Positions 8,591-8,658 of a DNA stretch of 64,000 bases are shown here, piece after piece. How positions within the stretch are numbered: the first letter of the stretch is position 1; each line of letters starts with the position of its first letter. The stretch comes from Alphaproteobacteria bacterium (lineage in GTDB: Bacteria > Pseudomonadota > Alphaproteobacteria > JAUXUR01): positions 5,304 to 69,303 of the forward strand of contig JAUXUR010000079.1 of the NCBI GenBank assembly GCA_030680745.1. Direction: 5' to 3'. A model generated the notes under the pieces. It was given only the letters and a program-made list of their open reading frames with translations. It searched no databases and was not told the origin of the DNA. The position numbers and the translations under genes are program-made.

Positions 8591-8658
8591 CTGCTCTGGG
8601 CGTTTTCCTGGACACGTTGAAGCGAAACTTTAAACGGAGATCCAGGACCCAGACTAAT
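8591..8658. repeat. Family-B hairpin repeat (ttcctggac..ttgaagcg..ggagatccaggacccagactaat) that ends 2 bp before the ATG of the next gene
   Basis: Aligns with 53391-53449 and with both inner arms of the 3671-3846 palindrome. Confidence 0.6.

Follow-up and report, generated by a model that had tools for sequence, protein, structure and literature searches.

The bacterial MITEs, among them the Correia elements (CREE) of Neisseria, Nezha of cyanobacteria and RUP of pneumococcus, have been reviewed together with the Rickettsia palindromic elements (RPEs), which are ~105-146 bp long, and SPRITE, a pneumococcal repeat resembling a Rho-independent terminator (PMC3184786). The mobility of Nezha has also been argued from filled versus empty orthologous sites with a target duplication (PMC3184786). 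REPs and REPINs form another described group (PMC3116915, PMC3337134), and REPIN singlets are more diverged than doublets (PMC3116915). The repeat that we describe here, family B, lies in a window of 64,000 nucleotides (contig JAUXUR010000079.1 of GCA_030680745.1; all positions are those of the window unless a locus is named), in which the original prediction had flagged four hairpin copies, starting at 3671, 3794, 8591 and 53391, as a mobile promoter or terminator module or an integration hotspot. According to our analysis, the flagged motif is probably the sub-terminal inverted-repeat arm of a non-coding, non-autonomous and lineage-specific MITE of ~280 bp, and we are likely to be dealing with a kind of selfish repeat that is already known, represented here by a new family, and not with a promoter or terminator module.

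Like the described MITEs, family B is small and non-coding, has terminal inverted repeats, is dispersed between genes and forms a very stable stem-loop. It differs from Correia and RUP, both of which duplicate TA, in the 12-bp length of the target duplication seen at one copy, and from the described MITEs in that its interior, instead of forming a loosely conserved core, consists of four stem-loops that are each conserved independently. With the REPs and REPINs it shares an inverted doublet of hairpin arms around a spacer, decayed-looking singlets and conservation of structure at the DNA level, but its arms are twice the size of a REP, its one testable site carries a target duplication, and its mobile unit extends ~50 nt beyond the arms. 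The RPEs are similar in being GC-richer palindromes of an AT-rich alphaproteobacterium whose genome has features of a host-associated lifestyle. However, RPEs often sit in frame within genes, whereas every family-B copy seen is intergenic (the two families being compared by description), and the TolC and PepP relatives of the host lineage are Rhodospirillales-like and not those of Rickettsia. SPRITE is alike in its terminator-like hairpins, to which hairpins 2 and 3 of family B correspond, but in family B these parts, recognized from their sequence alone, are internal and optional, and are missing from the solo arms.

The window is AT-rich (GC ~28-41%), and its source is an uncultured alphaproteobacterium that is probably host-associated. 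The closest named relatives of its TolC and PepP are Rhodospirillales-like and reach 38-55% identity. The lineage is a poorly sampled one. The MAG "Alphaproteobacteria bacterium C8_concoct.bin.36" (GCA_030696155.1) comes from a sister strain, with ~96% identity to the window across frr to rpsB, and a Logan contig from SRR13727517 is 100% identical to the window. The genes frr, pyrH, tsf and rpsB, a pterin dehydratase gene and the BioY gene lie upstream of position 8661.

All four flagged copies are present as motifs of ~55-60 nt, and above the chance level: TTCCCTGGAC has 5 matches in the window with at most one mismatch (1.65 expected), and GATCCAGGGTCCAGA has 3 with at most three mismatches (0.28 expected), a count reached by 0 of 100 shuffles. 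However, they are not four equivalent units, nor is the repeat unit ~60 bp long as had been proposed. BLAST searches and alignment of the MAG loci give a palindromic core of 181 bp as the unit, and when an nhmmer profile built from 13 full copies was scanned over the window, it matched one full copy and two right-arm-only stretches, both inverted relative to the model, which we call solo arms A and B (Table 1). The copies at 3671 and 3794, rightly described as forming an inner palindrome, belong to one core, of which they form the left and the right arm, respectively. The internal stem had been given as cctggac/gtccagg, but the conserved pairing is CCCTGGA/TCCAGGG, and the GTCCAGA tail that comes after it is complementary to the opposite arm. 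Weak profile matches at 21432-21615 lie inside a coding gene and were taken as chance.

Table 1. Family-B features and neighboring landmarks in the window
Feature	Position	Strand	Remarks
Full family-B core, 181 bp, palindromic	3669..3849	+	nhmmer 180.9 bits, E=1.7e-54
Left arm	3669..3730	+	terminus TGTTTCCCTGGAC, stems P1 and P2, tail TCCAGAAATAAT
Left-arm stem P1, CCCTGGA/TCCAGGG	3674-3680 / 3712-3718		100% of cells paired; 2 pairs changed on both sides
Left-arm inner stem P2, GAGCCC/GGGCTC	3688-3693 / 3697-3702		
Hairpin 2, CATGATC-GAA-GATCATG	3731..3747	.	97.8% paired
Hairpin 3, CATGCTC-TTGC-GAGCATG	3770..3787	.	100% paired; 3/7 pairs changed on both sides
Right arm (the copy flagged at 3794)	3790..3849	-	inverted partner of the left arm
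Left outer module, putative, boundary inferred	3633..3668	+	GTATGGCAAGTCG..., by analogy with the 279-bp L002 insert
Right outer module, putative	3850..3889	+	...GTAGAGAAAATTTTGAACATAAATTTAAAAATTCC
Solo arm A, right-arm-type half copy, spacer between BioY and the 382-aa gene	8602..8661	-	model positions 118-179, E=7e-13
TolC-family gene	51910-53358		upstream of 53391
Outer-terminus remnant upstream of arm B	53368..53391	+	TTGCCGGACAATTTTTAATTTCAT, matches the duplication-defined L002 end ATACCGGACAATTTTTATTTTTAT
Solo arm B, right-arm-type half copy after tolC	53392..53446	-	nhmmer E=1e-8

The window core, aligned with 12 other full copies, is ordered as left arm, hairpin 2, AT-rich spacer, hairpin 3 and right arm, and its ends, TGTTTTCCTGAAC and GTTCAGGAAAACA, are 100% complementary. 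Each arm is modeled as an outer stem P1 with an inner stem P2, the right arm having an inner stem of its own (GAAGC/GCTTC), and hairpin 2 is followed by ATTATTTCTG on the minus strand. The alignment of the MAG loci gives TTGTTTCCCTGGACCAATGAGAGCCCAAAGGGCTCGAATGCGGATCCAGGGTCCAGAAATAAT for the left arm and TATTTTAGTCTGGATCCTGGATCTGCGTATGAAGCTTCGCTTCAACGYGTCCAGGAAAACAA for the right arm, with CATGATC-GAA-GATCATG as hairpin 2 and CATGCTC-TTCG-GAGCATG as hairpin 3. As the length of the spacer differs by 16 nt among copies, no reading frame is conserved in the element. The GGSCAA terminal motif of the left outer module is found in other copies as well, and the right outer module is ~95% identical to a non-syntenic MAG locus (L005). 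The flanks of the window copy contain a possible 7-bp repeat, CCCATAA (3626-3632 and 3890-3896), which is not significant. A complete copy would consist of an outer terminus (~TACCGGRCAA) and an outer module of ~50 nt before the left arm, two short GC-containing hairpins around the AT-rich spacer, the right arm, and a second outer module with a second outer terminus. Candidate sequences for the outer ends of the element are TACCGGRCAA and TTATGGGCAAATT.

We scanned 185,579 species-representative genomes for the pattern TTCCCTGGAC-N22-36-TCCAGGNYYCAGA, and obtained 14 matches in 13 loci, all of them in the MAG GCA_030696155.1; six further singletons, scattered over unrelated taxa, were taken as chance. 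By nhmmer and BLAST, at least 13 full 181-bp copies exist on different contigs of this sister MAG in addition to the window copy, and all of them are intergenic. The same is true of the partial copies and both solo arms, the full (13/13) and partial copies lying 5-60 bp from ORF ends, either just after stop codons or between convergent genes, and with no consistent orientation relative to the flanking genes. The genes beside the copies are housekeeping genes, such as those for PhaC, FtsH, RseP and SLT transglycosylase, and no transposase gene was found beside the partial copies, whose neighbors are all of this kind. The predicted adjacency to gene boundaries is true but uninformative, since each copy fills a short spacer in a compact genome. 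Fifteen pattern matches in JGI metagenome contigs and one in IMG/VR were discarded as chance, because these contigs are GC-rich and unrelated and give no profile match. The plasmid and phage collections contained no family-B match, and Rfam none at the gathering threshold or at E<=5. The family-B element was found nowhere else across the genome, metagenome, viral, plasmid, phage and Rfam searches and is specific to one lineage; in having no similar sequence among the results of the plasmid, phage, metagenome and Rfam searches, it differs further from the described MITEs.

The clearest view of an insertion is provided by the MAG copy L002, in the spacer between the thiolase gene and prmA, which we compared with two related species (L047 and L048, with PepP identities of 90% and 82%). 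Both have matching flanks but lack the element, and so represent empty sites. The insert occupies 2892-3170 of L002 (279 bp) and has on either side one copy of a perfect direct repeat of 12 bp, ATGCATTTCAAT (2880-2891 and 3171-3182), which occurs once in L047, and once in L048 in the one-mismatch version ATGAATTTCAAT. The ends of the insert are inverted repeats (ATACCGGACAA... and ...TTGCCCGGTAG), the 16-nt outer ends TCAATATACCGGACAA and TTGCCCGGTAGATTGA being 88% complementary. Since this insert measures 279 bp, the mobile unit comprises the 181-bp core and the ~50-nt outer modules. The 12-bp duplication together with the inverted ends is a signature of transposition, and we therefore filed the family as a MITE, in agreement with most of the features summarized for such elements (PMC3184786): it is short and has no transposase gene (insert 279 bp, core 181 bp), it has terminal inverted repeats, its copies are dispersed, and one filled site, at which a duplication is seen, can be set against empty ones. 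Dispersal, insertion relative to two species and the 12-bp target duplication in one copy bear out the predicted mobility, and past movement is also indicated by the solo arms, which are missing from more distant relatives too.

As to the mechanism, a transposase encoded elsewhere in the genome would move the element in trans, and a 12-bp duplication would point to a DDE-type enzyme making a staggered cut. No autonomous partner with matching ends was seen in ~200 kb of DNA from the lineage. An IS481-like element downstream of tolC in L029 was rejected as a partner, its ends (TGTATAGGTTCATG...) being unrelated, and a search for a partner with the outer-terminus motif returned instead a ~100-bp palindromic family with a similar TTATGGRCAAATTCG module.

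A clean target duplication is visible in one of the 13 full copies, and the other 12 show none, as would be expected if the family were a REP/REPIN-type system, with REP-like hairpins as arms, the full element as an inverted doublet and the solo arms as defunct singlets. A single-copy Y1 transposase (RAYT, IS200/IS605-like) would then move single-stranded DNA by recognizing the hairpins, and transposition of the IS200/IS605 type leaves no target duplication. The inverted doublet with its spacer fits such a system, as does a GTAG that several copies have a few bases beyond the right arm, and the singlets are more diverged than the doublet arms, which is the pattern reported for REPINs (PMC3116915). 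However, the sole site with empty-site controls has a perfect 12-bp duplication, the ends of the L002 insert lie ~50 nt outside the arms, the ~60-nt arms and the ~280-bp unit exceed typical REPs, and no RAYT gene was seen beside any copy. We thus regard a REPIN-type origin as unlikely and favor the MITE reading.

The internal hairpins are conserved to an unusual degree. The folding of the core is far more stable than that of shuffles on either strand (z of -9.6 on the plus strand and -10.0 on the minus strand). When four local stem-loops were placed on the 13-copy alignment, 97.4% of the cells paired, as opposed to 21-43% in slid controls, and 10 pairs and 21 cells had changed on both sides, with 0 of 500 shuffles reaching any of these values. 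Thus, hairpin 3 occurs as CATGCTC/GAGCATG, CATGATC/GATCATG and CATGACC/GGTCATG, and P2 as GAGCCC/GGGCTC and GAGTCC/GGACTC; a C-G pair of hairpin 2 is replaced by U-A in two copies; and P1 of the right arm, 100% Watson-Crick, shows U-A/C-G covariation at columns 142/184. In the local P1 stems, 181 of the 182 cells are Watson-Crick and the remaining one is G.T, whereas pairing from arm to arm over the long range contains 12 C.A mismatches and was for this reason rejected as the selected structure. It is thus the local hairpins that are conserved, in keeping with the existence of solo arms. Mismatches of the G.T and A.C types are equally rare (7 each), so that, small as these numbers are, there is no sign of a preferred transcribed strand, and the balance favors a DNA-level structure or a constraint on both strands. 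The hairpins are kept by compensatory change without strand bias, and this near-pure Watson-Crick compensation is also what a REPIN-type system would lead one to expect.

A stable fold (z about -10) with covariation could also be produced by a multi-copy family of small RNA genes, each with its own promoter and acting in trans. But both strands fold equally well, G.U is not in excess over A.C, searching Rfam up to E<=5 gave nothing, a promoter consensus was not detected, and the target duplication at one copy and the arbitrary orientation do not suit such genes, which makes this explanation highly improbable. The strong conservation of the internal hairpins nonetheless speaks against our MITE reading in one respect, since a MITE mobilized by a DDE transposase does not need it, and it fits hairpin-recognizing systems better. 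Under the MITE reading, the hairpins may have been kept for a role in the propagation of the element, or they may be tolerated by the host as transcript-end or insulator structures. It is also conceivable, although we give it a rather low probability, that the four stem-loops have been selected themselves, as the compensatory Watson-Crick changes in many independent copies could suggest, and a four-way junction could then be built from the four CCCTGGA/TCCAGGG segments, which are complementary to one another, or that the host has domesticated the family. If selection on the folded form were true, the element would be a non-autonomous one that is recognized through folded DNA and yet inserts with a staggered cut of 12 bp, and neither MITEs nor REPINs have been described to combine the two; under domestication, the copies would instead serve as modules that mark transcript ends in both directions or act as insulators, and arm A would have been recruited to the leader of the secreted-protein gene that follows it.

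The promoter and terminator roles originally proposed found no backing at the solo arms. A consensus scan for sigma-70-like -35/-10 elements detected no promoter-like plus-strand site in 8575-8660 or in the arm at 53392-53446, and neither solo arm has, on the relevant strand, a GC-rich stem-loop followed by a T-run. In the full element, three terminator-like sites were found where 0.9 were expected, namely two from hairpin 3, one per strand, and one from hairpin 2, on the minus strand, and any terminator role would accordingly belong to the center of the full element, outside the flagged motif. These sites, together with the positions of the copies past stop codons or between convergent genes, could be taken to indicate that family B is primarily a host regulatory module, i.e., a set of bidirectional terminators, transcript stabilizers or insulators, with the arm at 8602 serving the gene downstream. 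The spacer of arm A points in the same direction, as it differs from that of L023 by one substitution and one indel when the flanking genes differ at ~13% of third codon positions, and the same spacer of L025 holds another hairpin. Nevertheless, the arms have neither a T-tract nor a promoter consensus, the orientation of the copies relative to flanking genes is inconsistent, and the divergence of arm B is that of neutral intergenic DNA. The block of low divergence in which arm A lies, 229 nt long, also covers 32 synonymous sites of bioY, so that a recombination tract would be as good an explanation of it as a constraint on the arm. Moreover, a host function leaves the spread of the repeat unexplained, and it is compatible with a mobile origin rather than an alternative to it. 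A primarily regulatory module is for these reasons an improbable account of the family.

On the MITE reading, the solo arms would be immobile right-end remnants of full elements. Both align to the reverse complement of the right arm through ...CCAGAYTAA, beyond which similarity ceases, and they are more diverged from the right-arm consensus (82% identity for arm A and 74% for arm B) than most arms of full copies (~90%). The copy after tolC was correctly located: arm B starts 34 nt past the stop codon and is preceded by an outer-terminus remnant, and because the upstream TTGCCGGACAATTTTTAATTT agrees with the outer end that the duplication defines in the L002 insert, we take arm B as a right-end half element. 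Its ortholog in the MAG (L026, 11489-11545) is 81.8% identical, compared with 75.7% over the remaining spacer and 91.4% over the coding sequence of tolC, which indicates that arm B drifts as neutral DNA. It is missing from L028, L029 and L030, relatives that include TolC identities of 83% and 67%. Arm A, on the other hand, is nearly invariant in four related assemblies whose 382-aa proteins are 87-93% identical; it is absent from L025, whose ortholog is 50% identical. Arm A sits in the block of low divergence and may have been recruited into the 5' region of the gene downstream. The inner ends of the two solo arms coincide (CAGAYTAATTTA), and a similar ATTTTTTAATYTGC lies just past the upstream stop codon of each, the latter being expected about once per window by chance at one mismatch. 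This could mean that they form a separate short sub-family instead of having been truncated independently, or the shared end point and ATTTTTTAATYTGC may be a coincidence.

Arm A does reach the ATG at 8661, as had been noted, but this ATG is given by the longest ORF and is not where the gene seems to begin. The alignment with the L025 ortholog places the likely start at an in-frame TTG (8679-8681), after a GGAA/GGAG motif similar to a Shine-Dalgarno sequence, and the protein translated from there begins with the signal-peptide-like LLNLKKIKSLVAISLSILSF. The annotated ATG of the 382-aa gene is thus probably wrong and the TTG at 8679 the real start, so that the distance of 2 bp between repeat and ATG would be a product of the longest-ORF rule. 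The proposed HAD-like identity of this gene was not supported either, as its product matches nothing in Pfam at E<=5 and is without a relative in PDB. Comparable extensions of ORFs into repeat DNA occur at L019 1348 and L016 7343. The scientific value of the family is modest, as it adds one more lineage-specific MITE family. Two aspects are noteworthy, namely the selection-like upkeep of four unusually well-conserved hairpins within a MITE, and a genome with at least five such repeat families. In practice, the repeat misleads gene callers into extending ORFs over repeat sequence, as at 8661, it breaks short-read assemblies, it marks a synteny break between two strains that are ~96% identical, and it offers strain-level markers for an uncultured, probably host-associated alphaproteobacterium.

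The proposed integration hotspot has only indirect support, in that different repeat families nest and cluster, and the synteny of the sister strains breaks at the cluster at 3590-4150. Collinearity between window 1-4150 and L021 1-5237 stops exactly at this cluster, downstream of frr; beyond it the MAG has the usual uppS-cdsA-dxr-rseP, and the window has repeat-rich ORFs of unknown function. The Logan contig of the window strain ends at 3998, within the cluster, and when the exact Frr sequence was looked up to find other strains at the site of the full element, this truncated contig was all that came back. Elsewhere, the MAG strain carries a 1.9-kb insertion (L021 11738-13609 versus window 10406-10428) that encodes a 385-aa ORF without a Pfam hit.

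Several other repeat families occur nearby. A second family of GC-rich palindromes (TCCTACGTCCCGCGG...CGCGGGACGTAGGA, in many cases with ACTTATGGGTAATGATATGG behind it) is present at 3591-3642, 3939-4031, 4085-4125 and 21889-22003 of the window and at 8722-8979 of L021. Its 259-bp copy between rpsB and the pterin dehydratase gene of the MAG strain is flanked by an AT-rich direct repeat of ~8-12 bp (TTATTATTTATA-like); the window, at the corresponding site near 7645, and L023 lack this copy. The arm tail of this family, GGATCCAGAAAGTAAAT, is similar to the family-B tail GGGTCCAGAAATAAT. A palindromic repeat of ~100 bp, starting with TTATGGRCAAATTYGTCGTCA, is found at 51376-51480 and, inverted, at 20017-20120, as well as in L004, L007, L009, L010, L013 and L020, and the resemblance of its terminal module to the outer left end of some family-B copies (such as L020 4234) hints that ends are shared among families. 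A 143-bp intergenic repeat at 28008-28150, whose terminal inverted repeat of 14 bp is perfect (TAGACTTCTTTCGA...TCGAAAGAAGTCTA), has copies of 87-98% identity in L010, L011, L013, L020 and L021, and constitutes a MITE-like family. Dispersed repeats at 31135-31310 (ends ATACCCAAAT...ATTTGGGTAT) and 23355-23459 are 87-97% identical to the MAG loci L004 and L014. At 59716-59744 and 59878-59906, two 29-nt inverted repeats (TTTTACCTCTCCCCTTGTGGGAGAGGTCG), 97% complementary and 133 nt apart, each form a hairpin by themselves.

Repetition is also seen within and among genes of the window. Three tandem paralogous solute-binding genes of the SBP_bac_5 type lie on the minus strand at 45600-50030, beside tRNA-Pro (50171-50247). 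In-frame tandem repeats occur within large ORFs of unknown function at 469-2904, 34665-35336 and 41497-41692, with units of 273 nt in an 806-aa ORF and 213 nt in a 1424-aa ORF, the third being a run with a period of 12-15 nt, rich in histidine when read on the minus strand. Judged by their sequences, these ORFs look like fast-evolving surface or effector-type proteins.
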